Shown here: piece after piece, positions 23,046-57,577 of the stretch
Layout: each line of letters begins with the position of its first letter
How positions within the stretch are numbered: position 1 is the stretch's first letter
Source: an uncultured Acidobacteriota bacterium
GTDB taxonomy: Bacteria; Acidobacteriota; Thermoanaerobaculia; UBA5066; Gp7-AA6
Direction: 5' to 3'
Length of the DNA stretch: 64,000 nucleotides
Assembly (NCBI GenBank): GCA_963782585.1
Contig: CAWAKL010000001.1
Span: forward strand, 250,133 to 314,132
Program-made: the position numbers and the translations under genes
Notes under the pieces: model-generated
The model's input: only the letters and a program-made list of their open reading frames with translations
Database searches by the model: none
What the model was told of the DNA's origin: nothing

Positions 23046-24107
23046 ATGCGATTCCTGATTACCGGCGGAGCCGGCTTCATCGGCTCGAACGCGGCGGCGC
23101 GGCTGCGCGAGCTCGGCCACGACGTGGTCGTCTTCGACAGCTTCGTCCGCGCAGCTTCGCGGTTCAACCGCGCATGGCTCGAGAGCCTGCATCCCGCCGT
23201 CCGCTTCATCGAGGGTGACGTCCGCGACGCCGGTGCCCTGCGGGACGCTCTCGCTCCGGATTTCGACGTGGTCCTTCATCTCGCCGGACAGGTCGCCGTG
23301 ACGACCTCGATCGTCGACCCGGTGACCGACTATGAGATCAACGCGCTCGGCACGTTCCGGCTCCTCGAGGAGCTTCGCCGCCGGCACGCCGGCGCCCCCG
23401 AACGGGCGCCGCTTCTGATCTACGCCTCGACCAACAAGGTCTACGGGCACCTGAGCATGGGAGAGACCGTCCGCGACGGCCGCTGGGACTTCCAGAACCT
23501 CCCGACCGGAGTCTCGGAGACGGAGCCCCTGTCGTTCGAATCGCCTTACGGCTGCTCCAAGGGCGCGGCCGATCAGTACGTGATCGACTACCACCGCAGC
23601 TTCGGCCTTCCCACCGTGGCCATGCGGCAGTCCTGCATCTACGGTCCGCGGCAGTTCGGCGAGGAGGACCAGGGCTGGGTGGCGTGGTTCGCGCTCGCGG
23701 CGGTGTTCGGCCTGCCGATCACGTTTTACGGCGACGGGCTGCAGGTCCGCGACCTCCTCTGGGTCGACGACCTCGTGGCGCTCTATCTCGCTGCGGCGCA
23801 GAAGCGGGACACGGTCTCCGGACGGGCCTACAACGTCGGAGGCGGCCCGGGGTACCGGCTGTCGCTCAAGGAGCTCATGGGCATGCTCGAGACGCGCCTG
23901 AAGCGGCCGATCCCGGTCGCCAAGGCGCCCACGCGTCTGGGCGACCAGCCCGTCTTCTACTGCAACGTGGACCGCGCCATGCGCGAGCTCGACTGGAAGC
24001 CCCGCGTTTCGCCGGAGCAGGGCGTGGACCGCCTGCTCGCCTGGATCCAGGGGAACCGTGAAGAGATCGCGCGCTTCCTCACCAAGAAGGGCCTGCAGAT
24101 CGCGTGA
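23046..24107 (+). CDS. NAD-dependent epimerase/dehydratase (extended SDR; CDP-/UDP-sugar epimerase-like)
   Basis: GGAGFIGS Rossmann motif. YxxxK as YGCSK. Confidence 0.85.
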   Translation: MRFLITGGAGFIGSNAAARLRELGHDVVVFDSFVRAASRFNRAWLESLHPAVRFIEGDVRDAGALRDALAPDFDVVLHLAGQVAVTTSIVDPVTDYEINALGTFRLLEELRRRHAGAPERAPLLIYASTNKVYGHLSMGETVRDGRWDFQNLPTGVSETEPLSFESPYGCSKGAADQYVIDYHRSFGLPTVAMRQSCIYGPRQFGEEDQGWVAWFALAAVFGLPITFYGDGLQVRDLLWVDDLVALYLAAAQKRDTVSGRAYNVGGGPGYRLSLKELMGMLETRLKRPIPVAKAPTRLGDQPVFYCNVDRAMRELDWKPRVSPEQGVDRLLAWIQGNREEIARFLTKKGLQIA

Positions 24108-27100: not shown

Positions 27101-29059
27101 GGAGGCCGGCCGGGAATCGGAAAGAACCTCGAGCCTTCCTCGCTGGGCGTCGATCAGCTCACCGTCTTCGGCCTCTTCGTCTTCCTGGCGCTCGGATGGT
27201 GGATTTCTTCCGCCGGCAGCCGACTCGCGGGACGGGGCCTCGGCCGGCCGGCGCGGTGGGTCGCCGGGCTGCTCCTGGTCGCCGCGCTCGTGTTCCTCGC
27301 CCTGCGCTTCCCGGACGCGTTCCTTCTGGTCTGCGTGCTGCTCTTTCTCGCGGCCTTCTTCTTCTTCGCCGAAGAGAAAGAAGACCGCCTGACGCTCGCG
27401 TTTCTCGCGGCGGCGTTCTTCCTCGTCCTCTTCACCCAGCGTTTCTACATCGTCGACCGGATGAACACGTTCTTCAAGCTCTACCTGGAAGCCTGGATCC
27501 TCTTCGCGATCGGCACCGCCGTTCTCGTGTTCCGCGGCCGGAATCGCCGGGGCGTGATCGACGCGTGGCCGTGGCCCGCGAAGGCCGCCACCGCGCTCCT
27601 CGTTCTGGCCGCCCTCTTCACGAGTGTGACGGGGGGACGCGCCGCCGTGAGCCGCCATTTCGCGCCGTACTCGGGGCCGTCCCTCGACGGGCTCCGATAC
27701 CTGCAGGAGCAGCGGCCGGGCGAGTACCGCGCCGTCGAGTGGCTGCGACGCAACGTGGCGGGCACTCCCGTCGTGCTCGAGGCCCAGGGGCCCTCGTACC
27801 AGGACTTCGGCCGGATCTCGATGCTCACGGGTCTTCCGACGCTGCTCGGCTGGGACTATCACGTCAAACAGCGGGGCAATCCGGAAAGCGAAATCGAAAC
27901 GCGCAAGAACGTGGTCCGGACGATCTACTCGCACACCGAGGCCGGAAGAGCGATCGCGTACCTCAAACGCTACGGTGTCGGCTACATCTACGTCGGCCCG
28001 GTCGAGCGCAAGACGTATCCGCCGGCGGGCTTGCTGAAGTTCCGTACGAACCCGCAGCAGTTTCCGCTCGTGTACGAGAACCCCGAGGTGCAGATCTACC
28101 GCGTGGCAGGAGGTCCGGCGCAGGACGTGCTGGTTCCCGTCCAGGAGACCCTGCCGCAGACCACCGCCTCCGGGCCTCCCGCCGACGAGCCGGAAGAGAA
28201 ACCCGCGGTGGCGGCTGAGGCCTCGGGCGAGGCCCCCTGGGCGAAGCTCCGCGAGCCGCGCGGCATCGCGGTCGACGGACGAGGACGCGTCTGGGTCGCG
28301 GATTTCGGCAATTCGCGCCTGCGCGTCTTCGATCGCGACGGGGGCTCGCTCGGCGGATGGGGAGGCCGCGGTTCCGGCGAGTTCGGCTTCCGCGAGCTCT
28401 GCGGTCTCGCGATCGCGGGAGACGCGCTCTACGTCGCCGACACCTGGAACGGCCGGGTCCGCGCGTACACCGTCGAGGGCCTCCTGCGCGGCTCGGCCGC
28501 CGAGCTCTACGGCCCGCGCGGCGTCGCCGTCGCTCCGAACGGGCGGGTCTGGGTTGCGGACACGGGCAATCACCGGATCGTCAACTACGGCCCGCTCCTC
28601 GACGATCCGCGCATCGTCGGGAAAAAGGGCGGACGCCCCGGCGAGTTTGCGAGCCCCATCGGCATCGCGGCCTCCCCCGGCGGCGAGATCTACGTCGGCG
28701 ACACGGGCAACCGCCGGATCCAGGTCCTGCATCCGGACGGCTCCCTCGCCCGCGTGCTCGCGTTCCCGGGCTGGGGCGAGAACGTGGAGCCCGGCCTCGC
28801 CGTCGACGCCGACGGAACGATCTGGGCCACCGATCCCGCTACGGCCTCCGTCCTGGCGCTCGATCCGAGCGGCGAAGTGAAGACGCGGATCTCTGCGGAC
28901 GAGAACGGGCGCAAGTTCGAGAACCCGACGGGGCTCGCAATCGACGCGAAAGACCGTATCCTCTACGTCGTCAACTCGGGCTCGAGCACGGTCTCGAAGA
29001 TTCGACTGGCGGCCGCGGCGACTCCCGCCGCTCCGCGGGGCAAGGGGGCGACGCGTTGA
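24104..29059 (+). CDS. 1651-aa fusion protein: N-terminal PMT/ArnT-like GT-C domain + DUF2298 ('YYY') membrane domain + C-terminal NHL-repeat beta-propeller
   Basis: GTG 24104 overlaps the epimerase stop (GTGA). N-terminus resembles GT39 (…HPDERF…). The middle domain parallels gene 18907..21063 (INEYPFWSLVFADLHAH). The C-terminus has six NHL-like repeats (VADTGNHRIV, VGDTGNRRIQ, …). Confidence 0.8.
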   Translation: MTRLPRRRARAILLGILLLGGLFRFQGLNWDEGHHLHPDERFISMVEEKLAFPKEPGAYFDSKRSTLNPYNRGEGSFVYGTLPMVMAKAVAPLFGKKGYGETHLVGRALSGFFDLVTVWLVYRITRRFTHRRAALFAAGLSAFCALGIQLSHFWAVDAVLTAFTAAALLGAVRIAQDRSGLAGDALTGAAIGLAAACKITALALFAPVGIALLVRALARGRARGWMVGQIFAAIPRGLLLLASAAVTVRIFLPHVFLGPSPLSFRLDPRWIDDLRKLKLLSSSVAGFPPALQWAGRTLFFPVENFVLWGAGVAFGLAAIAALLWSFGAILRRRQFVLAPLSLYVLFLFGYHGLTLVKSIRYFYPAYPALAVLTGVAFSSWLSRSRTPGRARFARICALVVLAATFLWAVAFTSIYRRPNTRVEATRWIYSHVPPPKAFANESWDDGLPMPMPNYDPARYAGPSLPLFDPDSPEKVEAVVTALTQADWVAVTSGRVYMNVTRVPVVFPMSIAYYRALFDGELGFRRAADFTSYPSLGPLRFPDDRAEEQFTVYDHPRVLLFQKTPEFSPAKARALLSAAIPQTPPTMHDWERWPRALRRVSAPVRPDRSARPETPAPSYAEPGEPVGRSFGAAAVWYLGLALVGLLGAPLCFAAFPRFADRGFGFARIFGLVIVTYLLTLAVTFRVLANGRRAALVCLLLLAAASAWTFLRNRHDLLRFVRENRRALLQSELVFAAGFVLFLGIRALNPEIFWGEKPMDFSILNILARTRSLPPSDPWLAGAPLGYYTFGQEMVVFLTFLTNLSTRFTFNLAFGMLGGTILQGAFSLARNWGGRLRAGIAGAVLTLLLGNLSGLREWLERKRPLDWDYFWATSRVIRDTINEYPFWSLVFADLHAHVLAIPVFLFFAAAALHYVRLHALPAGSWGRRLSGAVLLGFVAACQALTNAWDVPVLTGMLVLVIPAAAALMPGVTLAGLGRAGAGLLVGAGSAYLFALPLWFRAGGRPGIGKNLEPSSLGVDQLTVFGLFVFLALGWWISSAGSRLAGRGLGRPARWVAGLLLVAALVFLALRFPDAFLLVCVLLFLAAFFFFAEEKEDRLTLAFLAAAFFLVLFTQRFYIVDRMNTFFKLYLEAWILFAIGTAVLVFRGRNRRGVIDAWPWPAKAATALLVLAALFTSVTGGRAAVSRHFAPYSGPSLDGLRYLQEQRPGEYRAVEWLRRNVAGTPVVLEAQGPSYQDFGRISMLTGLPTLLGWDYHVKQRGNPESEIETRKNVVRTIYSHTEAGRAIAYLKRYGVGYIYVGPVERKTYPPAGLLKFRTNPQQFPLVYENPEVQIYRVAGGPAQDVLVPVQETLPQTTASGPPADEPEEKPAVAAEASGEAPWAKLREPRGIAVDGRGRVWVADFGNSRLRVFDRDGGSLGGWGGRGSGEFGFRELCGLAIAGDALYVADTWNGRVRAYTVEGLLRGSAAELYGPRGVAVAPNGRVWVADTGNHRIVNYGPLLDDPRIVGKKGGRPGEFASPIGIAASPGGEIYVGDTGNRRIQVLHPDGSLARVLAFPGWGENVEPGLAVDADGTIWATDPATASVLALDPSGEVKTRISADENGRKFENPTGLAIDAKDRILYVVNSGSSTVSKIRLAAAATPAAPRGKGATR

Positions 29060-31760
29060 ACGAAACCGCAGCAGCGGAGCTCGCGGGCGGCCGGCGGAGA
29101 ATCTCCGGCCGGCTCGCCGCGGCCCTGCTCCTCTTCGCGGCGCTCGCCGTCGCTTCCCGCTTCTGGGCGCTCGGCGACCGGCCCCTCCACCACGACGAGT
29201 CGATCCACGCCTATCAATCGTGGACGCTCTCGCGGGGAGGCGACTGGCGCTATGACCCCGCGTACCACGGCCCGTTCCTCTACTACCTGAACGCCCTCGT
29301 CTACAAGATCTTCGGCGCCACCGACGCGACGGCGCGCCTCGCGCCGGCGTTCTTCGGAGTGATCCTCATCGCGTTTGCCTTCCCGCTCGCCCGCTGGCTC
29401 GGCCGCAAGGCCGCCGTGGCCTACGCGATCTTCGTCCTGCTGACCGCGCACTATCTCTATTTCTCCCGGTTCATCCGCGAGGATCTCTATTCGCTGGTCT
29501 TCACGCTCGGCACGATCGTCGCCTTCCAGCGGTTCCTGGAGACGGACCGGGCGCGATGGCTGCTCGGCTCGGCGGCCTGCTTCGCCTTCGCCGGGGTCAC
29601 GAAGGAGAACGCCTACATGACCGGCGTCCTCTTCGTCGCGTACGGGCTCTGGTGCCTCATCCGCACCGCGCCCTCGCCGGCGGGCCCCAAACCCGGTGCC
29701 GCCGTGGCGGCCGGCTGGCGCTGGACGATCGCGCGCATCGCGCCGGTCGTCTCGGCCGGCCTGCTCTTCCTCGTCATCTGGGCGGCGATGTACACGGCCT
29801 TCGGCAAGTACCCCGGCGACTGGCTCGCGATCCCCAAGGCCGTCAAGTACTGGATGGGCCAGCACGCCATCGCCCGCATCCCGGGGCCCTGGTGGTACTA
29901 CTTCCCGCAGCTCGCCGCCTACGACACCGCGATCGTCGTCGCCGCGCTCTTCGCGTTTCGCCGGCGCGACTGGCGTACCGATCCCTTGCTCCGGACGGTC
30001 CTCGTGGCGCTTCCCCTCTTCGCCGCCTATGTCGCTCTGCATGAGTGGAAGCCCGCCTTCGGCGGGCCCGCGCTGCTCGTGGCGCTCGGCCTGTCCGTCG
30101 TGGCGTTCGTGGTCGCCGGATGGGTCTGGAAACCGCCACCGGTCTCGGAGCTCTCTCCCTTCCTCCAGTTCGTCGCCTTCTGGGCCGTCGGCTCGCTCGC
30201 CATCTACGCATGGGCCCGCGAGAAGGTGCCCTGGCTCACGGTCCATCCCCTTCTGCCTCTGACGGTGCTCGCCGCCATCGGCGTCGCGCGGCTCTGGGAG
30301 GAGCGGCCGAAGCCCTATGCGCGCGCCGGTCTCGTCGCCATCGCCGCGCTTCTCGCGGTCAACGCCTGGGGCGCGTACCTCGCGGCCTTCCGCTACGGAG
30401 CGCACGACGTCGAAAAAGTGCCCGGGCACGCCGAGATGCTCGCGTACGTGCAGACCTCGGAGGATCTCGTCCGCTCCCTTCGCGCCGTTCAGCAGGCGAA
30501 GGGGCGGGTGCCCGACGGCCAGAACCTCGTCACCGTCGCGGGTGAAGCCGCCTGGCCCCTGACCTGGTACCTGCGCGACATCCCGACGACGTGGGCCTCG
30601 CGGATCGAGCAGGCCTCGACACCGGTCATCATCGCGGACTGGGACGCCGAGGGGGCGCTCGAGAAGCAGCTCAGCGACAAGTACGACGCGAAGCGCGTGC
30701 CGATTCGCGCCTGGTGGTTCCCGGAGATTCGCAAGGAAGCGGGGAAACCCACCCGCCCGAGCTTCCGCGACATGCTCCGCCTCTGGCTCTTCCACGAGAT
30801 CTGGAGCCCGATCGGGTCGCAGGACGCGACCGTCTACGTCCGCAAGGACCTCGGCGGCAGCGGCATGCTCGAGCCGCTCTCGGTCGAGGTGCAGGACACG
30901 TCCGCGCGGGACTACCCCAACGAAGCCGTGGAGCTTCCCGCGGGACGCGAGTTCGGCGGACCCGGCGCGGGCCCCGGCCAGCTCTCCGAGCCGCGAGGAG
31001 TCGCCGCGGACGCGAAGGGCAACCTCTACGTCGCGGATTCGAAGAACAGCCGGATCGCGATCTTCGACGGCAACGGTGCGTTCCTGCGGACGGTCGGTTC
31101 TCGGGGCGACGGCGACGGCCAGCTCAACGAGCCGAGCGGCGTCGCCGTCGGGCCGGACGGCGAGATCTACGTCGCCGACACCTGGAACCACCGCGTCGCG
31201 CGCTTCGGGCCGAACGGGGAGTGGCGCGGGCAGTGGAAGGATTCGGACCGTGCTTTCTTCGGTCCGCGCGCGGCCGTCCTCTCGGGCGGATCCTTTACGT
31301 CGCCGACACGGGAAACAAGCGGATCGTCCGCTTCGACGCCGAGGGCAACGTCGCGGGCTCCTGGGGGGGCGCCGGAAACGGACCTGGCCAGTTCGTCGAG
31401 CCCGTCGGGCTCGCCGCGGACGCGGGAGGGCGGATCTACGTCGCGGACACCGGCAACCACCGTGTCCAGGTCTTCGAGGCCGACGGCCGGTTCGTCCGGC
31501 AGTTCCCCGTCTACGGCTGGAAGGATTTCTACACCGAGCCCTACCTCGCCGTGGGCCCGTCCGACGGCGTCTTCGTCACGGATTCCTGGAAGGGCCGGAT
31601 CGCGCACTACGACGCGGCGGGCAATCTCCAGAAGTCGTACTCGGCGAAGGGGCTGAAGAGTCCGACGGGGATCGCGCTCGATGCGTTCGGGAGGGTGTTC
31701 GTTTCGGACCGCGGACAGAACCGGATCGTCTCGTGGGGGCTCGCCGACTTGATGAGGTAG
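29056..31760 (+). CDS. PMT-like GT-C membrane glycosyltransferase (TIGR03663-like) fused to a C-terminal NHL-repeat propeller; apparent single-base frameshift near 31265-31275
   Basis: TTG 29056 overlaps the upstream stop (TTGA). The N-terminal membrane domain is in frame 1 up to …FFGPR. The NHL repeats (YVADTGNKRIV, YVADTGNHRVQ) continue in frame 0 to stop at 31760. Confidence 0.7.
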
Positions 31761-31763: not shown

Positions 31764-33806
31764 CTACCTCAGCCGCACCTCGCGGAGATGCACATGCTGG
31801 GGCTCTCCGGCGTTCACGTCCCGCACCGAGATTCTCACCGTCGCCACCGGGCCGCCGATCGGCGGTAGCGGCACCGTCACCGTGGGGTCGGCAGGCAAGT
31901 CCCGGTAGAGCTGCGAGAAAGACCCCTCTCCCGATGGCCCGGAGACGTCGACCGTGATCTCGCAGTGCATGCTGCCGAGCGTCAGAGCCAGCTCCCGAAG
32001 CGGCCGCGGCGGGTCGAAGTGGACGGCCACGACCGCGGGATTCGCGCCCCCGGTTCGGACGACCGAAGCATCCTCGCCGTCGAAGAGGTGGAACGCTCCG
32101 CCGACGTCGAAGACGGAATGTTCGACTTCGGCTTTCGCGCCGCCGATAACGACCTCTTCCCTCACGAGCCTTCGCCATTCCTGCTGCTCGGCCGCGAGAA
32201 CCTTCTCGAATTCCGGCGCGTAGCGCAGCCAGACGGCGCGGAACCCGGGCCGGCCGTCGGGGTACAGAATCGTCTTCTCGAGGCGCAGCGGCTCGAAGCG
32301 CGGGTCGGCCTTCGCCTGCTGATATTCGGGCTCCGTCAGGACGGCGAGGGTCTCCGCGGGGATGTCCTGCTTCTGATAGCGGAACCAGTCGATGTTGGCG
32401 ACCAGCATGCGCTCCTGCCCGGGAACGAAAAACTCCAGAAGGTCGTCCATGCCGTTGGCCCAGTCCGGTGAGACCACGATGAGGGCGTCGGGGTGACGCT
32501 TTCTCAGCCGCGCGACCTCGCCAAGGACCTCGCGCCCCCCCCACTGCATTCCGTAAAGGCCGTAGTCGCGATACCACGTCGGTCCGTGGACGAGGGCGTC
32601 GGCGAGCATCGCCCCCTGCGACACGGCGAGGCCCGCCCAGACGAGCGCGCCGACGACGATCGGGCGCACCCATCGCGTGAGAAACCGCAGAAGAGGATCC
32701 GCGGCGACTCCGACGAGCATCCCGAACACGACGACCAGGATCATCGCCCGCGTGATGCCGGAGTGGACGATGGCCGCTCCGGCCGGCGCGCAGAGGAAGG
32801 CCACGAGCAGGGTGCGCTCGCCGGGTGAGCGGATCCGCCAGGCGCAGAGGACCGCGCCGGCCACGATGAAGGGCAGGGCCAGCAACGGAACGTGCGTGTA
32901 ACCCTTCATCGTGTGGCGGGCGATGTCGTCCGGCGGATTCGGGCGGAACCAGTACCGCGGGTTGTAGGCGTTGGCGTACTCGCGGCCATAGAGGCCGAGC
33001 TTCTCCGGCAGACTGCGCCGGGAGTCCGTCCAGTAGGAGTCGAGGCTCCGCAGGCGCTCCCCGACTTCGCGCGAGTGCGCCCGGACGAATCTCACGTACG
33101 GGAGCGCGAGAAGAACGGCCAGGGCCGCGGCGGCGAGTACCGTCCGGCGGTTCTTCCAGTGGAATCGGGCGTCGACGACTCCGAGCAGCAGCGCCGTCGC
33201 GACGATGACCGGCTGGAACGTGTTGTACCCGTAAAACGTGAGGGCGCCGAAGACGGCGGCGGCGTAGAGCGAGCGGGTTCGCCCGCCCCGGTAGCGCAGG
33301 TAGAAGTAGAGGAACCAGACGTAGGCCGCGGTCGCGAGCATGAGCTCGAAGGCGATGCGCGTGTGCAGGAACCATCCCGGGAAGCCGGAGAGCGCGAGGA
33401 TGCCGACCCAGTAGAAACGGAGCTTCAGGAAGTCGCGGAGGATCAGGCCGGCCGCCAGCATGGCCGAGAAGAGGACAGCGACCGGCACAGCGCGCGCGAC
33501 GAAGACCGACCGGGGCAGGAGCTTCTCCGGAAGAACCTGGAGGTAGACGCCGACGCTCAGGTTGAAGAACTCGGTGTTGCGGAAGTAGGCCGGAAAGAGC
33601 TCGCCCTTCTCGCCGCGAAACCCGTTGGCCGAGAGGCGCGCGGCCTGGACGGTCTGCACGGCCTCATCGCAGAAGAAGAAGATCGGGAACCTCTCGAGGC
33701 CCCAGAGCCGGGTCCCGAGAAAGACGGCGAGCGTCAGCGCGAAGAAGACGAGGTTTTGCCGGGGCGTGGGGCCGTCGCGGCCTTCGCCCATCGCCCTCGC
33801 GTCCAT
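31764..33806 (-). CDS. PMT/ArnT-like GT-C membrane glycosyltransferase with a C-terminal beta-sandwich (galactose-binding-like) domain
   Basis: 680 aa. FFCDEAVQ (DE motif) precedes multiple TM segments. Convergent with gene 29056..31760. Confidence 0.75.
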   Translation of the reverse strand: MDARAMGEGRDGPTPRQNLVFFALTLAVFLGTRLWGLERFPIFFFCDEAVQTVQAARLSANGFRGEKGELFPAYFRNTEFFNLSVGVYLQVLPEKLLPRSVFVARAVPVAVLFSAMLAAGLILRDFLKLRFYWVGILALSGFPGWFLHTRIAFELMLATAAYVWFLYFYLRYRGGRTRSLYAAAVFGALTFYGYNTFQPVIVATALLLGVVDARFHWKNRRTVLAAAALAVLLALPYVRFVRAHSREVGERLRSLDSYWTDSRRSLPEKLGLYGREYANAYNPRYWFRPNPPDDIARHTMKGYTHVPLLALPFIVAGAVLCAWRIRSPGERTLLVAFLCAPAGAAIVHSGITRAMILVVVFGMLVGVAADPLLRFLTRWVRPIVVGALVWAGLAVSQGAMLADALVHGPTWYRDYGLYGMQWGGREVLGEVARLRKRHPDALIVVSPDWANGMDDLLEFFVPGQERMLVANIDWFRYQKQDIPAETLAVLTEPEYQQAKADPRFEPLRLEKTILYPDGRPGFRAVWLRYAPEFEKVLAAEQQEWRRLVREEVVIGGAKAEVEHSVFDVGGAFHLFDGEDASVVRTGGANPAVVAVHFDPPRPLRELALTLGSMHCEITVDVSGPSGEGSFSQLYRDLPADPTVTVPLPPIGGPVATVRISVRDVNAGEPQHVHLREVRLR

Positions 33807-34460: not shown

Positions 34461-36482
34461 TTGATTCACACGTCGGACTTCGCCCCCGCGCGCGACGAGG
34501 CGGGTTCGTCGTTCGCGGATCCGGCGGCGCGCGCTTCCAGCGGTCTGCTCGCCCTCGGGATCGCCGGCGTCCTGCTTCTGACGGCCGCCTGCTGGCCGAT
34601 GCAGCGGCACGCGCTCCCGGCCTGGGCGGCCGCGACCCTCGCGGCTGGCCTCCTCTCGTGGCTCGCCGTCGCCTGGAAATCGGCCGGCGCGGCGGAGGCG
34701 TTGCCCGGGATCGCGCCGGCGCCGGCCAACGTCAACTGGCTGGCCCCCGCGCTCCTCGCCGCCCTCGCGCTCGCAGCTCTCTCCTGGACGCGCACGGCGT
34801 CCGGCCGGTTCGAGATGGTTGGCGTCGCCTCCTGGCTCGGCGCGGTCGTGATCTGGCTCTGGGGGTGGTCGCAGAGCTTCCACGAGACGCCTCGCGACGC
34901 GCGGCCCGCGCCACCGGCGCCAGCGTCTCCCCGCGCTCGACTGTCCGTGGGGCTCGCCCTCCTCGCCATTCTCGCCGTCGGCGCGTTCTTCCGGTTCCAC
35001 GACCTCGCCGGAATTCCTCCGCATCCCGGAAGCGATCATGCCGAGGACCTCCTGAACGTCGAGCAGCTCTCGCGAGGGGAGCGGCCCGTCTTCTTCCCGA
35101 CGAACACGGGGCAGGCGCCGCTCCCCTTCTACTTCGAGTACCTGCTGGTGAAACTCGGCCTGCCGATCAACTACCTCATGCTCAAGATCTCGACCGCCCT
35201 CGTGGGGATGCTCGCGATCCCGGCGATGTACGTTGTCGGCCGCGAGCTCGGCGGCGCGCCCCTCGGGCTCGTGGCCGCCGCGCTGTGCGCCTGGAGCAAG
35301 TGGCCGACGCTGGGCGCACGCCGGGGCCTCACGTTCGCGTGGGCGGTCTTCCCGGCGGCCCTCTTCCTGGCGGCGATCCTCCGGTACATGCGGCGAGGCG
35401 ATCGTCCGAGCGCGCTCTCCGCGGGCTTCTGGCTGGGCCTCGGCCAGTACGGATACAACGCTTTCAAGATCGTCCCGGCGATGGTGCCCCTCGCCTTCGG
35501 GCTCTGCCTCTTCGATCGGCGCTGGAGGCGCCATCGCGGGCGGCTCGTCTTCGACGGCGTCCTCGTCGCGGCCACGGCCCTGCTCGTGTTCCTGCCGCTG
35601 CTCCAGTACATGTTGCAGCGTCCCCAGGACTTCTGGTACCGCGCGATGACGCGCGCGGGCAGCCAGGAGAGGCCGCTCCCCGGCTCGCCCGCCGCCCTCT
35701 TCGCCGGAAACCTCGGCCGCATGGCCCTGGCTTTCCACTACCGCGGGGATCAGGCCTGGATCAACACCGTGGCGGAGGAGCCGTTTCTCGATCCCGTCAC
35801 GGGCGCGTTGCTGCTCGCTGGCCTCGTCGTCGCGGCCGTTCTGATCGTTCGAGGCTCGACCCGCTGGGCCCTCGTGGTCCTCTCCCTGTTCGTGCTGACG
35901 CTCGCCTCGACGCTCGCGCTCGCCTTCCCGGTCGAGAACCCCGGGATCAACCGCGCCTCTGTGGCCATCCCCTCCGTTCTCGTGCTCGCGGGGTTGCCGG
36001 TCGTCTGGCTGCTGCGCCGGGCGCGGGAACGCGGACGCGGATGGCTGTTGGTCGCCGGCGGCGTTCTCGCGGCGCTGGGCGCGCTGTCCCTCCAGCAGAA
36101 CTACGAGAGTTACTTCGTGCGCTTTCGCCACGAGCAGGTGACGATCCTCGAGCCAACCATGGACGTCGTGCGGGTCATGCGCGAGTACCGCGACAACGAG
36201 GGCGTCCCGTTCGACAACGCCTATCTCCTCAACACGACGAACTGGATCGACGGCCGCTGCATCGACTTCGAGATCGGGGACCGCCTCTGGTCCGGGCCCC
36301 ACGACGTCCCGCCCGCACAGCCGGTGCCCCTCATCCGGGACCGGCCGCTCGTGTTCTTCGTCCACCAGAGCGACCGCCCGCGCCGGGAGCAGCTCAAGAC
36401 CGACTACCCGAACGCCGAGGAACACTTCGTCGCGCAGCCGTTCCGGGACCGGAGCTACTTCACGTATTTCGTTCCGCGCTGA
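34461..36482 (+). CDS. Glycosyltransferase family 39 (ArnT/PMT-like) GT-C membrane protein
   Basis: 673 aa. TTG 34461; an alternative ATG is at 34599. Has PGSDHAED (DE-type motif) and many TM helices. Confidence 0.7.
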   Translation: MIHTSDFAPARDEAGSSFADPAARASSGLLALGIAGVLLLTAACWPMQRHALPAWAAATLAAGLLSWLAVAWKSAGAAEALPGIAPAPANVNWLAPALLAALALAALSWTRTASGRFEMVGVASWLGAVVIWLWGWSQSFHETPRDARPAPPAPASPRARLSVGLALLAILAVGAFFRFHDLAGIPPHPGSDHAEDLLNVEQLSRGERPVFFPTNTGQAPLPFYFEYLLVKLGLPINYLMLKISTALVGMLAIPAMYVVGRELGGAPLGLVAAALCAWSKWPTLGARRGLTFAWAVFPAALFLAAILRYMRRGDRPSALSAGFWLGLGQYGYNAFKIVPAMVPLAFGLCLFDRRWRRHRGRLVFDGVLVAATALLVFLPLLQYMLQRPQDFWYRAMTRAGSQERPLPGSPAALFAGNLGRMALAFHYRGDQAWINTVAEEPFLDPVTGALLLAGLVVAAVLIVRGSTRWALVVLSLFVLTLASTLALAFPVENPGINRASVAIPSVLVLAGLPVVWLLRRARERGRGWLLVAGGVLAALGALSLQQNYESYFVRFRHEQVTILEPTMDVVRVMREYRDNEGVPFDNAYLLNTTNWIDGRCIDFEIGDRLWSGPHDVPPAQPVPLIRDRPLVFFVHQSDRPRREQLKTDYPNAEEHFVAQPFRDRSYFTYFVPR

Positions 36483-36490: not shown

Positions 36491-36521
36491 CAAAGAAAAC
36501 GGCCGGCCCGAAGGCCGGCCG
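36491..36521 (-). terminator. Intrinsic terminator for the SLH-protein gene: perfect 9-bp GC stem (CGGCCGGCC / GGCCGGCCG), 4-nt loop, then TTTTCTTT on the minus strand
   Basis: Read from sequence. Lies 22 nt downstream of the minus-strand stop (36543) and 18 nt downstream of the plus-strand stop (36482). Confidence 0.6.
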
Positions 36522-36542
36522 TCGCACAAACGGAACTCGGGG

Positions 36543-37361
36543 TTATTCCCAGCCGAGGCCGAGGGCCTTCGCGAGGAACGTCGCCATCTGCCCGCGGGTC
36601 ACCGGGCTGTCGGGGCAGAACAGCGGCGGCGCCTGCTGACACCCGCCGGTCACACCCGACGCCGCGAGGGCCTCGATGAACTGGAAGAAGATGTGGCCCG
36701 TCGGCACGTCGTTAAACGTCGCAACGGCCGGCGCGGGAGACGGTTCGAGGACGTAACCCAGAACGACGCCCGAAAAGCTGTTGGTCCCGTCGCTCGCTCC
36801 GAATTTGACGTCCAGCAGCGTCTGGCCGAGGAAGTTGTTCACGCGGTGGCTGATCGCGCTGTCCGTGACGATGTGGCACGGGTCGGGAACATCGCTCACC
36901 GTCGTGAGGCTCGTCAGGGGCGTGTCGTCGCAGAAACCTTCGAAGTCGCAATTCCAGACTGTGAGGTTCAGGTGCAAGTCTGTCGTGCTGGCGTCGCAAG
37001 CGTCGAGCTCCACATAAACGATGCGGGCACCGCCGGGGATGGTCGGCGACGAAACGAGATGGTTGAAGCCATCGCCGACGAAGTACCGCTGGTAGTCATA
37101 GCCGTCGAAGTCCGGATTCCACGTGCTCGTGTAAGTGTCGGTGCTGACATCGGAGGTGAACTGCATCACCGAGACTCGCTGGTACTGAATGCCGACGCCG
37201 CCGAACTCGGGGGACATCAGCGGCCGCACTTTCGGGGTTCTGGGGCTCGTGTTCCGAAGAGGCTGGGCCCTCTTCTTCGACGCCGAGGCCTCCTGACCCA
37301 TCGCGATACCTGCCGCGAAGACCGAAACGAACGACAAGGCGAGGATTCCCCTGATTTTCAT
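36543..37361 (-). CDS. Secreted protein with a C-terminal S-layer-homology (SLH) domain; visibly lower GC than its neighbours
   Basis: Signal peptide MKIRGILALSFVSVFAAGIAMGQEA. The C-terminus (FNDVPTGHIFFQFIEALAASGVTGG…VTRGQMATFLAKALGL) fits the SLH pattern. RBS is AAGGAGCCGGAG-ATG. Confidence 0.7.
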   Translation of the reverse strand: MKIRGILALSFVSVFAAGIAMGQEASASKKRAQPLRNTSPRTPKVRPLMSPEFGGVGIQYQRVSVMQFTSDVSTDTYTSTWNPDFDGYDYQRYFVGDGFNHLVSSPTIPGGARIVYVELDACDASTTDLHLNLTVWNCDFEGFCDDTPLTSLTTVSDVPDPCHIVTDSAISHRVNNFLGQTLLDVKFGASDGTNSFSGVVLGYVLEPSPAPAVATFNDVPTGHIFFQFIEALAASGVTGGCQQAPPLFCPDSPVTRGQMATFLAKALGLGWE

Positions 37362-37484
37362 CTCCGGCTCCTTCCCAAATGAAATAAAAACTCCGTTCCC
37401 CGTAGAGAGAGAACCGCCCGCGAAGTCCGAGGCAAGGAAGCAGTGCCGGCTATTCTACCAGCGCAGACCCGTGAGGGAGGTCAC
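37362..37484 (-). promoter_or_regulatory. AT-richer upstream/leader region of the SLH gene containing a TAGAAT -10-like hexamer and a long leader
   Basis: Local drop in GC (…ggtagaatagcc… / …gagtttttatttcatttgggaaggagccggagATG on the minus strand). No experimental support. Confidence 0.25.
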
Positions 37485-38843
37485 CTACGAGCGGAAAACC
37501 TTCTCCTCGCTTCCGTCCAGCCAGCGGTCGACGAGCTCGACACCCTGCATCAGCGAGTGGTCCTGGTTTCCGATCTCGTACTTCCAGGAGCCGAAGCGGC
37601 CGCGCGAGAAGATCCCGCGGGGCTCGAGGTAGGCGTGGATCGTCTCCAGGGCCGGGTTCCGATCGGTCGACGGGATCGGATAGGAGTGGCCGGCGTGGAT
37701 CAGGAACACCGTCTCGATGAGCGGCAGGTCGGACGGTTGGAGGATGCCCTCCGCCACCAGCCCGTCCACGACGGCCTTGCCGAAGTCCCCCTTCGGGAGC
37801 GGCTTGAACTTCGAGTAGGACGTCTCGGTCAGGACCGAGAAGTACCGGCTCGTGTCGCCTCCCGGCACGATCTGGGGCGAGTAGTTGGAGAGGTACGTCA
37901 TCCGGTAGAACGGCGTCTCCAGGTTCGGGAAGTAGATCCAGTTCTTGTCCGACGGCGACGGCCGCTTGAGGCCGATGCCGACCGAGAAGAGGCGGTTGAA
38001 GAGCAGCTTCGAGGCCGCGGCGCGCACGCTCTCGGGGGCGCGCGTCAGGCGCGCGACGAGCGCGTCGAGGGGCATCGTCGAGAGCAGCCGGTCGTACGAC
38101 CGCGTGGAGCCGTCGGCGAACGTGACTTCCCGCTTCTCCTCGTCGATCGAGACCACCCGCTTGTGGAGGCGGACGCGATCGCCCAGAAACGGGAGGACAG
38201 CCTTCCAGAGCCCGAGCGTTCCGCCGCGCGCCGGATAACCGAACTTGGCGTTGGGACCCCACTCCGTGGATCTCGGAACGAGCGTCGTCTCGATGGCCTT
38301 CCGCCAGTCCACGACCGAGACCCGCTCGGCGATCCAGTAGTGCCCCATCTTCGCGAGCGGCGTCGCCCAGACCTTGAAGTTGTAGGGGTTCATGAAGTGC
38401 TTGGCGATGCCGGCGCCGAACTTCGCGAGCACCCACTCCTCGAAGTTCGTGAAGGCCTTGTCCTTCGAGATGGTCTGGGACTCGACGAGGCCGATCAGGC
38501 ACTCGAGCATCGCCTGTTCGGGGAGCGAGGAGAGGTGGTTCTGGAACGGGTAGCGGACGTACTTGTCCTCGAACTTGATCCAGCTCTCCCGATCGATCCA
38601 GCGGATCCCGTCCGAGCCGAGGACCTTCGCGAGGAAATCGTTGAAGTACTTGTAGCCGGAAAAGATGATGTGGCCCGAGACGTCCCACGTCCAGCCCTTC
38701 GGGTCGACGAAGCTCGTCGCGAGCCCGCCGACCTGGCCGGCGCGTTCGAAGATCTCGAAGCCCGTCTCGCCCCGTTCGACGAGCCGGTAGGCCGCGCCGA
38801 GCCCGGTCGGGCCGGCGCCCAGGATGACGGTGCCGCCGCTCAC
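37485..38843 (-). CDS. glf: UDP-galactopyranose mutase, eukaryote-type (long-form) family
   Basis: GTG 38843 overlaps the GT2 stop (GTGA). From memory, blocks match fungal/protozoan UGM: ILGAGPTGLGAAYRL, YPFQNH, FMNPYNFKVWA, WGPNAKFGYPARGG, SRGRFGSWKYEIGNQDHSLMQGVELVD. Confidence 0.75.
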   Translation of the reverse strand: MSGGTVILGAGPTGLGAAYRLVERGETGFEIFERAGQVGGLATSFVDPKGWTWDVSGHIIFSGYKYFNDFLAKVLGSDGIRWIDRESWIKFEDKYVRYPFQNHLSSLPEQAMLECLIGLVESQTISKDKAFTNFEEWVLAKFGAGIAKHFMNPYNFKVWATPLAKMGHYWIAERVSVVDWRKAIETTLVPRSTEWGPNAKFGYPARGGTLGLWKAVLPFLGDRVRLHKRVVSIDEEKREVTFADGSTRSYDRLLSTMPLDALVARLTRAPESVRAAASKLLFNRLFSVGIGLKRPSPSDKNWIYFPNLETPFYRMTYLSNYSPQIVPGGDTSRYFSVLTETSYSKFKPLPKGDFGKAVVDGLVAEGILQPSDLPLIETVFLIHAGHSYPIPSTDRNPALETIHAYLEPRGIFSRGRFGSWKYEIGNQDHSLMQGVELVDRWLDGSEEKVFRS

Positions 38844-39625
38844 GCCTTCTTCCTCGTCACGCGCTTCAGGGCGTCGGCCTGCTTCATCTCCCTCCGCAGG
38901 TCGAAGAGGTACCGGATGACCCGCAGGATCGTGCCCAGCATCTTGAACGGACGGTGAATCGACTGGCCGGCCTCCCGCGGGAAGTGGCGGACGATCACCT
39001 CGTCGACCTTCCACCCCGCGATCCGGCAGCGCGCATAGATCTCGTCGCCGACGAAGTTGATCCGGTGCTTGATCTCGATGCGGCGCGCGACGTCCCGCCG
39101 GAACGCGCGGCAGCCCGCGTTGATGTCGTGCAGGGGCGAGCCCAGGATCCAGTGCGAGAGGATCCGCAAGCCGCGCGAGAGGATCAGCCGGCCCACCGGA
39201 TCGTGGCGGACCTTCTTCCAGCAGAAGACGACGTCGGCGCCGCGGTCGATCGCCTCGATAAAGAGCGGGGCGTCGCCCATGGTGTGCTGGCCGTCGCCGT
39301 CCACGACCATCACGACTTCGCCCGGGACGTTTCGCAGCGCGGTCTCCGTCGCCACGGCGTAGCCCTTGTTGCCGTCGTGGTGGACCACCGAGACGCGCGG
39401 GTCCTTTTTGGCCAGCTCCTCGGCGATCTCGCCGGTGCGGTCCCGGCTCCCGTCGTTCACGACCACGACGTGCCAGGTGAGGCCCGGGATCGCCGAGAGC
39501 GAGGTGACCGCCTCCTCGACGGTCTTCGCGATCAGGTCCTGCTCGTTGTAGGCGAGGAAGCCGACGCCGAAGCGGACCTTCCGCTCGGCGGTCTCCGTCG
39601 CGGGGGCCCGGGAATCAGCGGCCAT
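38840..39625 (-). CDS. GT2 polyprenyl-phosphate hexose synthase (DPM1/Ppm1-like, soluble type)
   Basis: 261 aa. VVVVNDGSRDRT and DGDGQH motifs are typical of dolichol/polyprenol-phosphate mannose or glucose synthases. Overlaps the UbiA-gene stop by 11 nt. Confidence 0.8.
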   Translation of the reverse strand: MAADSRAPATETAERKVRFGVGFLAYNEQDLIAKTVEEAVTSLSAIPGLTWHVVVVNDGSRDRTGEIAEELAKKDPRVSVVHHDGNKGYAVATETALRNVPGEVVMVVDGDGQHTMGDAPLFIEAIDRGADVVFCWKKVRHDPVGRLILSRGLRILSHWILGSPLHDINAGCRAFRRDVARRIEIKHRINFVGDEIYARCRIAGWKVDEVIVRHFPREAGQSIHRPFKMLGTILRVIRYLFDLRREMKQADALKRVTRKKA

Positions 39626-40538
39626 AGATGATCCAGCCGGCCGTGGCCACCCAGCCGATGACGACCAGAAGAAGCCAGGGGTCGTCGGTCAGCAGCGCGC
39701 GGGTCGGGTTGCCGCCTCCTCCGCCCTTGTACACCAGCCGGACGTAGCGAGCGATTCCGAGCACGACGAAAGGCACCGTCGGCGCGAGCGAGCGGCCGTA
39801 GTGCGTGACCGTCGCGGGCGAGGTGCTGTAGGCGGCATAGCCGGCGACGGTGGCCAGTCCCGTGACGATGAAGAGATGGTCCAGGCCCTCCTCGCGATAC
39901 GCGGCGAGGGCGGGCCGATGCCCGGGCGCGGCGTTGAGAAACTCCCACTGCCGCTTGCCCGCCACGAGAAAGAGGGCGAGGAGGTACGCGCAGCCCATCA
40001 GAAACAGGGAGGGATGCACGGCGGCGAGGGCCGCGCCGGCGAGCGCCCGCAGCGGCATTCCCGCCGCGACCACGAGCGCTTCGAGAAACGGCACGCGCTT
40101 CCAGAGAAGCGAGTAGGTCAGCATCAGCGCGGCATAGACCGCGCACCAGAAACCGAACGGGCGCGAGAGGAGGAACGCCGCCCCGAGGCCGGCGGCCTCC
40201 AGGATCGCCGCGACGGAGATGGCCGTCGACGGCGTGAGCCGGCCCGAGGCGAGAGGGCGGAATCTCTTGACCGGGTGCGCCCGGTCGCGCTCTCGGTCCG
40301 CGACGTCGTTGACGAGGTAGATGCCGCTCGTGATGACGCAGAAGACCGCGACCCCCGCGGCGGCCAGGGCCCAGCCGGCCGGCTCGCCGAGAGCCACGCC
40401 GAACAGAAACGGCAGCGGCACGACCAGGTTCTTGACCCACTGGGCCGGCCGCATCGCGGCCAGGAGCGCGCTGGCGACTCCGCCGGAAGTAGACAAGGGT
40501 TCCGCGGGCGTCGCGTCTCCCGGCGCTGGCGCAGACAT
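39615..40538 (-). CDS. UbiA-family decaprenyl-phosphate phosphoribosyltransferase-like enzyme (Rv3806c/DPPR synthase family)
   Basis: RPAQWVKN, YLVNDVADRERDRAHPVKRFRPLASG and AGKRQWEF blocks match my recollection of the mycobacterial DPPR synthase. Confidence 0.75.
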   Translation of the reverse strand: MSAPAPGDATPAEPLSTSGGVASALLAAMRPAQWVKNLVVPLPFLFGVALGEPAGWALAAAGVAVFCVITSGIYLVNDVADRERDRAHPVKRFRPLASGRLTPSTAISVAAILEAAGLGAAFLLSRPFGFWCAVYAALMLTYSLLWKRVPFLEALVVAAGMPLRALAGAALAAVHPSLFLMGCAYLLALFLVAGKRQWEFLNAAPGHRPALAAYREEGLDHLFIVTGLATVAGYAAYSTSPATVTHYGRSLAPTVPFVVLGIARYVRLVYKGGGGGNPTRALLTDDPWLLLVVIGWVATAGWIIYGR

Positions 40539-40595: not shown

Positions 40596-41831
40596 TCAAT
40601 GCCCCGCGTGGCCCCCGTGTCCTCCGCCCAGACCGATGTCGAATCGGATCCGCGTGAACACGTGGAACGAGACGGGATTCGTCGAGTAGACGTCGTCGAG
40701 CCGATCCGTGAAGCGGTAGAGCGTCAGGTCCGCGCCGACGCCGGTCGTGGCGTTGGGCAGCAGCGTGAAGTCGCGCACGTACCCAAGCGTCCCGGCGTAG
40801 ACGCGCGTGCGATCCAGCGGGACCTCCTCGGGACGCTGACGCTTGAACCTCAACTCGAAGAGATCGCGGTCCACGGCCTCGAAGCGACCGTAGATCGTGT
40901 TGCAGTCGGCAAACTTCCACGTCCCCTCGAGAAGCGTTCCCCAGAACTTCGTGGCCTCTTCGACCTCCTGGTTCTGTCCGGTGATGAGCGAGACCGCCAG
41001 GAACCCGCGCGGAAACGCCTTCTCCCAGGCGAGCATGGCCGTGAACCGGTTGAGGTTCCCGGGCTCCGCCGCCTCGGGATTCGTGAGGTGGCCGCCCGAG
41101 AACTGGACCGTCCAGCCGGGAAGCGGGACGGCGGTGAGCCGGACGGCGTAGGAGTCGATCGCTCCCGCCTTGATGTCCCAGCGGTTCTCATCGGGCTCCG
41201 CGCCGTGGAAGGCCGAGCCCTCCAGCGTGAAGATGGAGGCCTCGAGGCCCAGCGTCAGCACGTCGTAGGAGATGTGCGTCGAGTCCTGATTGTGATGGGA
41301 CAGCGGCGCGGTCGGGTTCGCCGAAGCGGAGAGGCGATGAACGAAAGCCGGAGGACCGAGCGCCGGCTCTCCCACCGCGGCTGCGTAGAAGCGGAGACTC
41401 AATCCGGGTGCGAACGTTTTCTCCCACGCTCCCGCGAGTTGCATGAAGAAGTCGTGGGGGTGCTGGTAGTCCACGAGGAGCACGCCCTGAAACGTCTCGC
41501 CGACCTGGAAGAGCTCCCGGCTGCCGGGATCGGGGATCGTCGCCGGCTCGAGCGAGAGGGTTCCGTAGAAGGAGAGCTTCCCTCCGAGGAACGAGCGGGT
41601 GGCCATCCCCATGAAATGGTTCTGCGACCCGAACTGGTCGCCTCCCGAAGGGCCGCCCTGGTCGTTGTAGGTCAGGTAGGCCCAGCCGTGGACCATCGTC
41701 ATCCAGTGGTCCATCGCGGGCATCTGCTCCATCGCGACCATCGGGTCGACCGGGGCGACGGGTTCCTGTCCCGACACGAGCGGGGCCGCGAGGCCGAGAG
41801 CAATCGAAAGTAGGCCGACACGAAGAAACAT
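40596..41831 (-). CDS. Secreted / probable outer-membrane beta-barrel protein with a His-rich C-terminal tail (GGGHGGHAGH)
   Basis: ATG 41831 preceded by AGGAGG. Signal peptide MFLRVGLLSIALGLAAPLVSGQEP. Alternating-pattern beta-strand-like sequence ending in aromatic residues. Confidence 0.6.
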   Translation of the reverse strand: MFLRVGLLSIALGLAAPLVSGQEPVAPVDPMVAMEQMPAMDHWMTMVHGWAYLTYNDQGGPSGGDQFGSQNHFMGMATRSFLGGKLSFYGTLSLEPATIPDPGSRELFQVGETFQGVLLVDYQHPHDFFMQLAGAWEKTFAPGLSLRFYAAAVGEPALGPPAFVHRLSASANPTAPLSHHNQDSTHISYDVLTLGLEASIFTLEGSAFHGAEPDENRWDIKAGAIDSYAVRLTAVPLPGWTVQFSGGHLTNPEAAEPGNLNRFTAMLAWEKAFPRGFLAVSLITGQNQEVEEATKFWGTLLEGTWKFADCNTIYGRFEAVDRDLFELRFKRQRPEEVPLDRTRVYAGTLGYVRDFTLLPNATTGVGADLTLYRFTDRLDDVYSTNPVSFHVFTRIRFDIGLGGGHGGHAGH

Positions 41832-41899
41832 CCCATCCTCCTGAGGCCGGGCGGACGCGCCCGGCGAAACGCGCGAAAACAACGGCTCGCGCCGGAGGA

Positions 41900-57566: not shown

Positions 57567-57577
57567 GGCTACGCAGG

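Follow-up and report, generated by a model that had tools for sequence, protein, structure and literature searches.

How does a bacterium come to carry a uridine diphosphate (UDP)-galactopyranose mutase (UGM) of the long, 'eukaryote-type' form, and what would its product be used for? The question is raised by a gene at 37485-38843 in a 64,000-nucleotide stretch of DNA from an uncultured acidobacterium (contig CAWAKL010000001.1, Thermoanaerobaculia), the whole of which is called the window here. Judging from its sequence and modelled structure, the gene very probably encodes a functional UGM that depends on flavin adenine dinucleotide (FAD) and belongs to the long class of fungi, kinetoplastids and nematodes. 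It lies on the minus strand and specifies 452 residues from a GTG start, which shares the sequence GTGA with the TGA stop of the upstream glycosyltransferase family 2 (GT2) gene. Orthologues of the protein have 451-453 residues and coverage of 99-100%, so 38843 is the right start. A longer open reading frame (ORF) back to 39014 was rejected, since about 170 nt of it would fall inside the GT2 gene. The gene limits given in an earlier, preliminary description of this DNA are right, and the five motif blocks that it had quoted are all found in the 452-residue translation, far beyond what chance would give:

Residues 9-18: GAGPTGLGAA
Residues 98-102: YPFQN
Residues 152-160: NPYNFKVWA
Residues 195-208: WGPNAKFGYPARGG
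Residues 413-430: SRGRFGSWKYEIGNQDHS

Using phmmer against all sequences in the PDB, we found that the best match is the UGM of Trypanosoma cruzi (TcUGM, 4dsg; E 2.2e-99, residues 5-444 of 452), together with 13 distinct sequences of Aspergillus fumigatus UGM (AfUGM), wild-type and mutant and including 3uka and 3ute, at E about 1e-95 to 1e-93. After these eukaryotic UGMs the next match reaches only E 0.0055, and no short-form bacterial UGM is matched at E ≤ 0.01. Full-length identity is 43% to the T. cruzi and 41% to the A. fumigatus enzyme. Pfam recognizes only Amino_oxidase (E 4.5e-17) and NAD_binding_8 at E ≤ 0.01 and leaves the short-form GLF domain unmatched, confirming the earlier statement that the protein has none of the short bacterial Glf pattern. 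NCBIfam models of PRK07208, uncharacterised bacterial subfamilies named 'hypothetical protein', mark the protein as a relative and not a member: it reaches 194.6 bits where the cut-off is 380, and 189.8 where it is 389. An AlphaFold2 model built on 36 homologues, with a mean predicted local distance difference test score of 94.3 and a predicted template-modelling (TM) score of 0.92, was compared with solved structures using Foldseek. It superposes on TcUGM 4dsg at TM 0.95 with 1.8 Å root-mean-square deviation (39% identity) and on AfUGM at TM about 0.92, and contains the three-domain UGM fold including the helical inserts of the long class. Two elements of AfUGM are missing from the protein, as they are from TcUGM: the hairpin at 340-366 and the tetramerisation extension at the C terminus (Af 474-510). 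With these absent we infer that it is more likely a monomer than a tetramer.

We interrogated the active site by mapping AfUGM residues onto the acidobacterial protein via a HMMER alignment, taking the ligand contacts from the AfUGM table in the review of Kizjakina, Tanner and Sobrado (PMC3624792, Table 3) and the class-distinguishing residues from the eukaryote versus prokaryote table of van Straaten et al. (PMC3322874). Contacts to FAD and UDP-galactopyranose (UDP-Galp) are identical to AfUGM at 20 of the 21 positions. The FAD-binding GxGxxG motif reads GAGPTG at residues 9-14, and the FAD contacts T13, L41, H58, R416, G425 and S430 are kept (Af T18, L46, H63, R447, G456 and S461). So are the residues that bind the diphosphate (R174, Y304, R314, Y388 and Y422, corresponding to Af R182, Y317, R327, Y419 and Y453), galactose (R174, N198 and N426) and uracil (Y98, F100, Q101 and F150), as well as the further substrate residues N155 and W159. 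R314 is the equivalent of the arginine whose substitution, R327A, inactivates AfUGM (PMC3322874). The galactose and uracil contacts of the long class are all identical (Af Q107, Y104, F158, N163, W167, N207, W315, N457 and Q458), and the residues at the class-distinguishing positions Af N163, P206/N207, W315, Y317, Q458, F66 and Q107 are of the long type. In 23 labelled bacterial homologues these substrate and flavin residues show no variation.

Most class-distinguishing positions are thus eukaryote-type, the exceptions being two positions of the histidine loop, Af G61 and H68, at which all five Thermoanaerobaculia sequences examined have S56 and G63. G61 and H68 are conserved in seven of seven eukaryotic sequences, and in 23/23 and 21/23 of the other labelled bacteria. 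The double-glycine G-G-H loop has been described as unique to eukaryotic UGMs (PMC3624792); the acidobacterial loop reads S-G-H, with glycine at the His68 position of the Phe66 pocket and with the catalytically relevant histidine and Phe66 kept. Because 23 other labelled bacterial members have G-G-H, the motif is not eukaryote-specific. The protein falls within the long-form UGM class already known, and the G-G-H loop is the only class feature that it lacks. Full-length sequence match, a fold at TM 0.95 and the 20 of 21 shared contact residues support the long-form identity proposed in the preliminary description.

The family to which the protein belongs is large. In a search of 1.84 billion cluster representatives, a threshold of E ≤ 1e-3 gave 6700 homologue clusters and one of E ≤ 1e-30 gave 1022, and a scan of one genome per GTDB species gave at least 600 matches among these representative genomes, so that the rarity implied by the preliminary description is not borne out. 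The closest relatives, at 73-95% identity, come from metagenome-assembled genomes (MAGs) of Thermoanaerobaculia/Acidobacteriota. Among the matches listed at 44-50% identity are sequences from Gemmatimonadota, Phycisphaerae, Tepidisphaerales, Brocadia, Acidimicrobiales and other Actinomycetota, as well as Chloroflexota, Geomonas, Geothermobacter, Geobacteraceae, Binatia and Bacillota; labelled family members occur in about ten bacterial lineages, including Acidobacteriota, Gemmatimonadota, Planctomycetota, Actinomycetota, Chloroflexota, Desulfobacterota and Binatia. The acidobacterial protein is slightly closer to these homologues from other bacterial phyla (44-50%) than to eukaryotic UGMs (41-43%).

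A neighbour-joining tree of 155 sequences (437 columns, Kimura distances, midpoint root, 100 bootstraps) included seven eukaryotic UGMs: those of T. cruzi, Leptomonas, A. fumigatus and an Aspergillus cluster, and three others, of which one has eukaryotic gene neighbours and two are called eukaryotic only by their similarity to AfUGM. In 100/100 bootstraps the Thermoanaerobaculia sequences come out as monophyletic, and the query together with 28 taxon-labelled bacteria is split from the seven eukaryotic sequences in 100/100; those seven form an exclusive clade in only 2/100 replicates. The phylogeny called for earlier thus places the query with labelled bacteria, apart from eukaryotic UGMs. A cluster-name look-up among the 150 best representatives gave names for the Aspergillus and Leptomonas clusters only. 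Representative P0161 has eukaryotic gene neighbours, and P0142 and P0199 have neighbours of bacterial or mobile-element type. The UGM homologue P0199, which lies near eukaryotic sequences in the tree, is encoded on contig L089 (2535-7915), where a large serine recombinase gene stands upstream and a PhyH-family gene, the UGM homologue and a NUDIX hydrolase gene follow in that order. L089 may come from a virus or a mobile element, which could have carried the gene from one domain of life to another.

We also looked for a foreign signature in the gene itself and found none. Its GC content at third codon positions is 0.95 and its codon-usage distance lies within the range of 27 other window genes; total GC, at 0.659, is slightly low, owing to codon positions 1 and 2 and not to position 3. 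The synteny of the gene holds in 21 related Acidobacteriota genomes. Because codon usage, synteny and tree agree, the gene belongs to an old bacterial family and is no recent import; it is, as far as these sequences tell, native and vertically inherited in Thermoanaerobaculia-type Acidobacteriota. Of the two origins that the preliminary description had offered, ancient sharing or horizontal transfer, a recent transfer does not stand, and which way any ancient exchange between bacteria and eukaryotes went does not follow from the neighbour-joining tree. The query is part of a large branch of the long-form family that is bacterial and uncharacterised, and the label 'eukaryote-type' reflects which members were characterised first.

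To see what the mutase might serve, we turned to the genes around it, which are, with the main features of the locus:

37485..38843, minus strand: long-form UGM homologue, 452 residues (PDB matches to TcUGM and AfUGM, AlphaFold2 model, ligand contacts)
38840..39625, minus strand: GT2 glycosyltransferase, 261 residues (Pfam Glycos_transf_2); 4 nt are shared between its stop and the UGM start
39615..40538, minus strand: UbiA-family membrane protein, 307 residues (Pfam UbiA); 11 nt are shared between its stop and the GT2 start
40596..41834, minus strand: secreted protein with signal peptide; AGGAGG ribosome-binding site before the likely start
37395..37414, minus strand: weak hairpin resembling a terminator, 70 nt downstream of the UGM stop
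36543..37361, minus strand: secreted Cys-rich protein, 272 residues, with a weak C-terminal SLH-like match
36498-36523, after the 36543..37361 gene: terminator-like hairpin, the strongest in the region (11 bp, 9 GC)
34461..36482, plus strand: polytopic membrane protein, 673 residues; no Pfam family, faint STT3-like match
33820-34383, between the two polytopic protein genes: small lipoprotein-like gene
31764..33806, minus strand: polytopic membrane protein, 680 residues, with a large C-terminal soluble part; no Pfam family
29056..31656, plus strand: PMT_2/PMT protein of the glycosyltransferase C (GT-C) type with NHL beta-propeller repeats, about 866 residues; its TTG start overlaps the preceding stop
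24104..29059, plus strand: PMT_2 + DUF2298 + NHL protein, 1651 residues, about 20 hydrophobic segments
23046-24107, plus strand: extended short-chain dehydrogenase/reductase (SDR), nucleotide-sugar epimerase/dehydratase, below the RmlB and GalE cut-offs
21060-22208, plus strand: GT4 glycosyltransferase
18760-21063, plus strand: DUF2298/chlor_Arch_YYY membrane protein
10393-11364, plus strand: another GT-C fragment or short ORF of PMT_2/PMT type, well away from the main locus

Judged from its overlapping reading frames, UbiA-GT2-UGM is a translationally coupled operon of which the mutase is the last gene. Every one of the 21 Acidobacteriota/Thermoanaerobaculia loci whose flanks are long enough has this triad, which is absent from the loci of other phyla that were examined. 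The UbiA protein matches decaprenyl-phosphate 5-phosphoribosyltransferase (DPPR synthase) of Mycobacterium tuberculosis over its full length (PDB 8j8j, E 8e-28). With NCBIfam PRK12324.1-2 it reaches 181.6 bits, short of the cut-off of 234, and a further score is 173.2 against 207; it is a probable homologue of the decaprenyl- and polyprenyl-phosphate phosphoribosyltransferases (DPPR/PPPR synthases). The best solved relatives of the GT2 are all polyprenyl-phosphate glycosyltransferases: the dolichyl-phosphate mannose synthase (DPMS) of Pyrococcus furiosus (5mlz, 2e-15), ArnC (9bhc/8vxh, 4e-15) and GtrB (5ekp). DPMS and ArnC align over residues 21-245, past the catalytic domain, and GtrB over residues 20-141 only. 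Its best NCBIfam matches, to dolichyl-phosphate hexose transferase, PgfS, ArnC, AglJ and PpgS, are all far below cut-offs, and the GT2 has no hydrophobic segment or predicted transmembrane helix. On the opposite strand, the locus contains GT-C families (PMT_2, PMT and DUF2298) that are also found in two orthologous loci, L001 and L002. The PMT_2 and NHL protein at 29056-31656 has orthologues beside the triad in these two and many other loci. The 1651-residue protein, with matches to DUF2298 (4e-84), PMT_2 (6e-12) and NHL (4e-36), appears to combine a double GT-C-like membrane part with a propeller.

In other bacteria the homologues keep different company. On the metagenome contig L085 (761-5786), a homologue with 49% identity (P0123) is flanked by an ABC transporter and a 614-residue GlfT2-type galactofuranosyltransferase with the Pfam domains Glft2_N and GlfT2_domain3. 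This is the only one of 80 genome loci with a GlfT2-like gene near the UGM gene; its arrangement recalls mycobacterial galactan synthesis, but with a long-form mutase. An Acidimicrobiales homologue adjoins a galactokinase gene, and those of Gemmatimonadota, Brocadia, Geomonas, Geothermobacter and Binatia stand within clusters of GT4, GT2, WecG and GT9 genes. Fusions occur among the 150 best representatives, which come from clusters at 50% identity: four of these proteins carry NAD sugar-epimerase domains, and three carry glycosyltransferase domains. The fusion proteins noted are P0173, P0151, P0231, P0235, P0212, P0263, P0265 and P0121; among the glycosyltransferase fusions, one carries GT90 and DUF3431 and two carry GT4-like domains, and one fusion of 1551 residues has two UGM-like parts and DUF707. 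The invariant residues, the GlfT2 and galactokinase neighbours and the fusions support the view that the bacterial long-form family handles UDP-galactose.

By homology with AfUGM and TcUGM, N5 of the reduced flavin would attack C1 of the galactose in UDP-Galp and displace UDP, the galactose ring would open and reclose as a furanose, and UDP would re-attack to give UDP-galactofuranose (UDP-Galf). That galactofuranose (Galf) is a building block of the final product, as the preliminary description had it, is a reasonable presumption. In the route that we favour here, the GT2 would load Galf from the UDP-Galf made by the mutase onto polyprenyl phosphate, the lipid-linked Galf would be flipped across the membrane, and the neighbouring GT-C enzymes (PMT_2/DUF2298, several with NHL propellers) would pass it to an extracytoplasmic glycan or protein, while the UbiA homologue would make a lipid-linked pentofuranose donor in parallel. 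The results themselves cover homology, fold, conservation of the active site, distribution of the family, operon structure and synteny; in this scheme we infer the activity of the enzyme, the donor and acceptor of the GT2, the flipping and the use by GT-C enzymes.

Other accounts of the protein fare less well. One of them takes the source names at face value and sees an enzyme that catalyses a redox reaction, whether as a generic FAD amine oxidase or as an oxidase of protoporphyrinogen/coproporphyrinogen. Relatives are indeed called 'FAD-dependent oxidoreductase' at NCBI and 'protoporphyrinogen oxidase' at JGI, Pfam reports Amino_oxidase, and protoporphyrinogen oxidase is the next fold class after UGM. 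The preliminary description had taken best matches of this kind, with no UGM motifs, as what would speak against it. What we found is an NCBIfam protoporphyrinogen oxidase match of 38 N-terminal residues (5-42, E 0.0097) and a distant fold (TM about 0.75 at 14-17% identity, against 0.95 and 39% for UGM), beside the complete UGM substrate-binding set; moreover, fungal UGMs carry the same 'amine oxidase' and 'protoporphyrinogen oxidase' names in some sources. The redox reading is effectively refuted by these results, retaining a negligible probability, and the database names are under-annotations. It is also improbable, if less extremely so, that the enzyme is a pyranose-furanose mutase for another nucleotide sugar such as UDP-L-arabinopyranose, UDP-N-acetylgalactosamine (UDP-GalNAc) or a 6-deoxy-hexose. 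Such a specificity would fit the neighbouring pentofuranose-type UbiA enzyme and the lineage-specific S56 and G63 near the flavin and sugar pocket, and short-form Glf homologues are reported to act on UDP-GalNAc, fucose and heptose nucleotides (PMC12369002, PMC10680097). However, every AfUGM galactose contact (R182, N207, N457 and W315) is identical in the query, as is Y317, a diphosphate contact hydrogen-bonded to W315, and the family is found with GlfT2, galactokinase and fused 4-epimerase-like domains. The gene might instead have been acquired recently from a fungus or protist, as could be expected of a class so far characterised only in eukaryotes (PMC3624792, PMC3322874, PMC5421137). Its identity is 45-50% to bacteria of other phyla against 41-43% to eukaryotes, and the 100/100 split in the tree, the native codon usage, membership of an operon with overlapping start and stop codons and synteny across 21 genomes at 73-95% identity refute such a transfer for this lineage, leaving it a very slim chance.

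The use of UDP-Galf is more evenly disputed. If the enzyme is a genuine UGM, its product may quite conceivably, though we stop short of calling it probable, be used directly in the cytoplasm by a Leloir galactofuranosyltransferase, with no polyprenyl-phospho-Galf involved: the GT2 or the GT4 (21060-22208) would attach Galf to an acceptor, for instance a lipid-linked oligosaccharide, in the manner of GlfT1/GlfT2 and WbbI. To our knowledge, all characterised Galf-transferases (GlfT1/2, WbbI and GfsA) use UDP-Galf directly. UDP-Galf is treated as the donor in PMC6279836 and PMC11538602, the GT2 is without transmembrane helices, and homologues elsewhere stand beside Leloir enzymes (the GlfT2-like protein in L085, GT4/WecG in L023 and a Leloir-type GT2 in Geomonas). 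On the other hand, no PDB match of the GT2 at E ≤ 0.001 is to any molecule named galactofuranosyltransferase, its full-length matches are to DPMS and ArnC, and a long-form UGM and a transmembrane-less ArnC-like GT2 occur as a pair in several lineages. In L086 the two genes overlap by 4 nt and the GT2 has ArnC as its best PDB match (1e-15); in L062 the GT2 follows 17 nt after the UGM gene, again with ArnC as best match (2e-16); and in L056 (4111-9359), from a Thermodesulfobacteriota MAG, the order is a DUF2298-like gene on the minus strand, an ArnC-like GT2, a PF03706 MprF-flippase-type gene and the UGM gene, the last with a 4-nt overlap. The DUF2298 match is weak and just below threshold. L056 has the appearance of a full three-component module for glycosylation that brings its own UGM. 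The GT2-UGM pair suggests a second lipid-linked donor, polyprenyl-phospho-galactofuranose, and recurrence of the pairing in unrelated lineages supports this. Several points weigh against the mutase and the lipid-linked route taken together. Among the window genes scanned there is no recognised Galf-transferase and no recognisable flippase of the GtrA, MATE or MprF-TM type, and no clear GalE was found in the window, the SDR at 23046-24107 scoring below the cut-offs for RmlB (160 bits) and GalE (136 bits). The sequence of the GT2 does not reveal its nucleotide-sugar donor; the redox-sensitive histidine loop of the mutase carries two substitutions (Af G61 to S56 and Af H68 to G63); and we found no literature report of a polyprenyl-phospho-galactofuranose donor, with search terms crude enough to match 'UDP-Galf' as well. 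Most UGM homologues of other phyla, moreover, sit among ordinary Leloir glycosyltransferases, so that the lipid-donor route, if real, is lineage-specific. We therefore put forward only tentatively a route from UDP-Galf through polyprenyl-phospho-galactofuranose to periplasmic galactofuranosylation by GT-C enzymes, and hold it no more than possible that this undescribed route operates in Thermoanaerobaculia and, independently, in at least three other lineages, one of them represented by the Thermodesulfobacteriota MAG.

The other genes of the locus offer candidate partners and targets. The secreted protein at 40596..41834 has no Pfam or NCBIfam match; a homologue with 72% identity occupies the same position in L005, and its positional counterpart in L001 has a weak Phenol_MetA_deg match. 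It is possibly an outer-membrane protein, and its membership of the operon is uncertain. The gene with the SLH-like match (36543..37361) is kept downstream of UGM in L004, L005, L007 and L018, and its product, a possible cell-surface protein, could be a glycosylation target. Terminator-like sites in the region number 5, against 3.6 expected by chance in shuffled sequence, which is weak evidence, and a promoter scan found nothing. The 673-residue protein (34461..36482) is conserved near UGM in L002, L004, L016, L017 and L018, and the 680-residue protein (31764..33806) in L002, L004, L016 and L018; neither has an NCBIfam family. They are candidates for novel GT-C-type transferases, the GT-C fold being a guess. 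In all, the window has at least four recognisable GT-C-type genes. The combination of GT-C and NHL propeller recurs next to the triad in L001 and L002, and such a propeller on a glycosyltransferase could be a substrate-recognition module. The SDR at 23046-24107 has 23-29% identity to the epimerase domains that are fused to UGM homologues elsewhere.

Farther out, a gene for a MerR-type helix-turn-helix domain with tetratricopeptide repeats (42261-43100, minus strand), together with Ku (43170-43895), is syntenic with the triad in many related genomes (L001, L002, L003, L010, L012, L014, L015 and L018-L020). LigD seems to be split over the overlapping frames 44112-45692 and 45565-46704, both on the plus strand, the first with the phosphoesterase and the ligase core and the second with the last 28 residues of the ligase OB-fold followed by the primase-polymerase domain. 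The split reflects a genuine frameshift or else a fault in the assembly. A separate ATP-dependent ligase gene lies at 17862-18803. An alpha-glucan cluster at 50823-59362 (minus strand), unrelated to UGM, contains a GH77 4-alpha-glucanotransferase, a glucan-phosphorylase-like protein with DUF3417, a GH57/DUF3536 protein and an alpha-amylase-family protein.

Comparison with known systems shows where the acidobacterial enzyme and its operon stand. With TcUGM (4dsg/4dsh) and AfUGM (3uka, 3ute) it shares the three-domain fold, the GxGxxG motif and identical diphosphate, galactose and uracil residues, including Q107, N163, P206/N207, W315, Y317 and Q458, at 43% and 41% identity; it differs from them in its SGH instead of GGH histidine loop, with S56 and G63, in being bacterial and part of an operon, and in standing apart in the tree. 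Short-form Glf, as in Escherichia coli, Klebsiella pneumoniae, M. tuberculosis and Deinococcus radiodurans, presumably carries out the same reaction with the same flavin chemistry, and shares a distant common fold and two essential arginines with the long class (PMC3322874). Published identity between the two classes is 14-18% (PMC3624792), and the query, which has the long-class inserts, has no sequence match to the short form at E < 0.01; short-form enzymes have T, Y, F, N or M where it has long-class residues.

The GT2 resembles DPMS (5mlz) and ArnC (9bhc, 8vxh) in the catalytic domain and the helices that follow, and GtrB (5ekp) in the N-terminal part, and mycobacterial PpgS is likewise without transmembrane helices; unlike in those enzymes, for which coupling to a UGM is undescribed, the GT2 is coupled to one, and it scores far below the cut-offs of their families. 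The UbiA, GT2 and UGM triad also resembles the M. tuberculosis gene cluster Rv3806c-Rv3809c (ubiA, Rv3807c, glfT2 and glf), with a UbiA-type DPPR synthase, a GT2 and a UGM side by side; there the UGM is of the short form and the GT2 is the 637-residue polymerising GlfT2. The resemblance may be convergent. In Citrobacter youngae O1/O2, a polyprenyl phosphoribose synthase, a MATE flippase and the GT-C enzyme GT136 (Kelly et al. 2024, PMC11127046) form a three-component pathway, which makes a lipid-linked pentofuranose donor, flips it and lets the GT-C enzyme use it (PMC11127046); the UbiA homologue matches the enzyme that opens this pathway. The acidobacterial locus shares with this system and with mycobacterial decaprenyl-phospho-arabinose a UbiA homologue of the DPPR/PPPR type, here with GT-C genes next door, and would share their logic of a furanose donor linked to lipid phosphate and used outside the cytoplasmic membrane. 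Unlike them, it adds a UGM and an ArnC-like GT2, implying an additional hexofuranose donor (Galf), and we saw neither a MATE flippase nor a phosphatase nor a DprE1/E2-type epimerase in the window; its GT-C enzymes are PMT_2/DUF2298 proteins with NHL propellers and not GT136, as far as tested.

The literature on UGM divides 'eukaryotic' from 'prokaryotic' classes by domain of life (PMC3624792, PMC3322874, PMC5421137), and arguments for drug design rest on this split. We found no description of bacterial members of the long class in the accessible literature, though they may have been recognised earlier; with at least 600 matches among GTDB species-representative genomes, the class is common in bacteria. 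As a corollary, the 'eukaryotic' class may be an old and broad bacterial family of which the eukaryotes are one branch, perhaps acquired from bacteria. Because long-form proteins are named 'protoporphyrinogen oxidase' or 'FAD-dependent oxidoreductase', galactofuranose biosynthesis is probably under-counted in environmental bacteria; full-length similarity to 4dsg/3uka together with the conserved residue set gives a usable annotation rule. The family also offers bacterial, probably monomeric and intron-free models of the long-class enzyme. Finally, the UbiA-GT2-UGM operon beside GT-C genes is a testable lead to a lipid-linked Galf donor, which, if true, would extend extracytoplasmic pentofuranose systems (PMC11127046) to hexofuranose.

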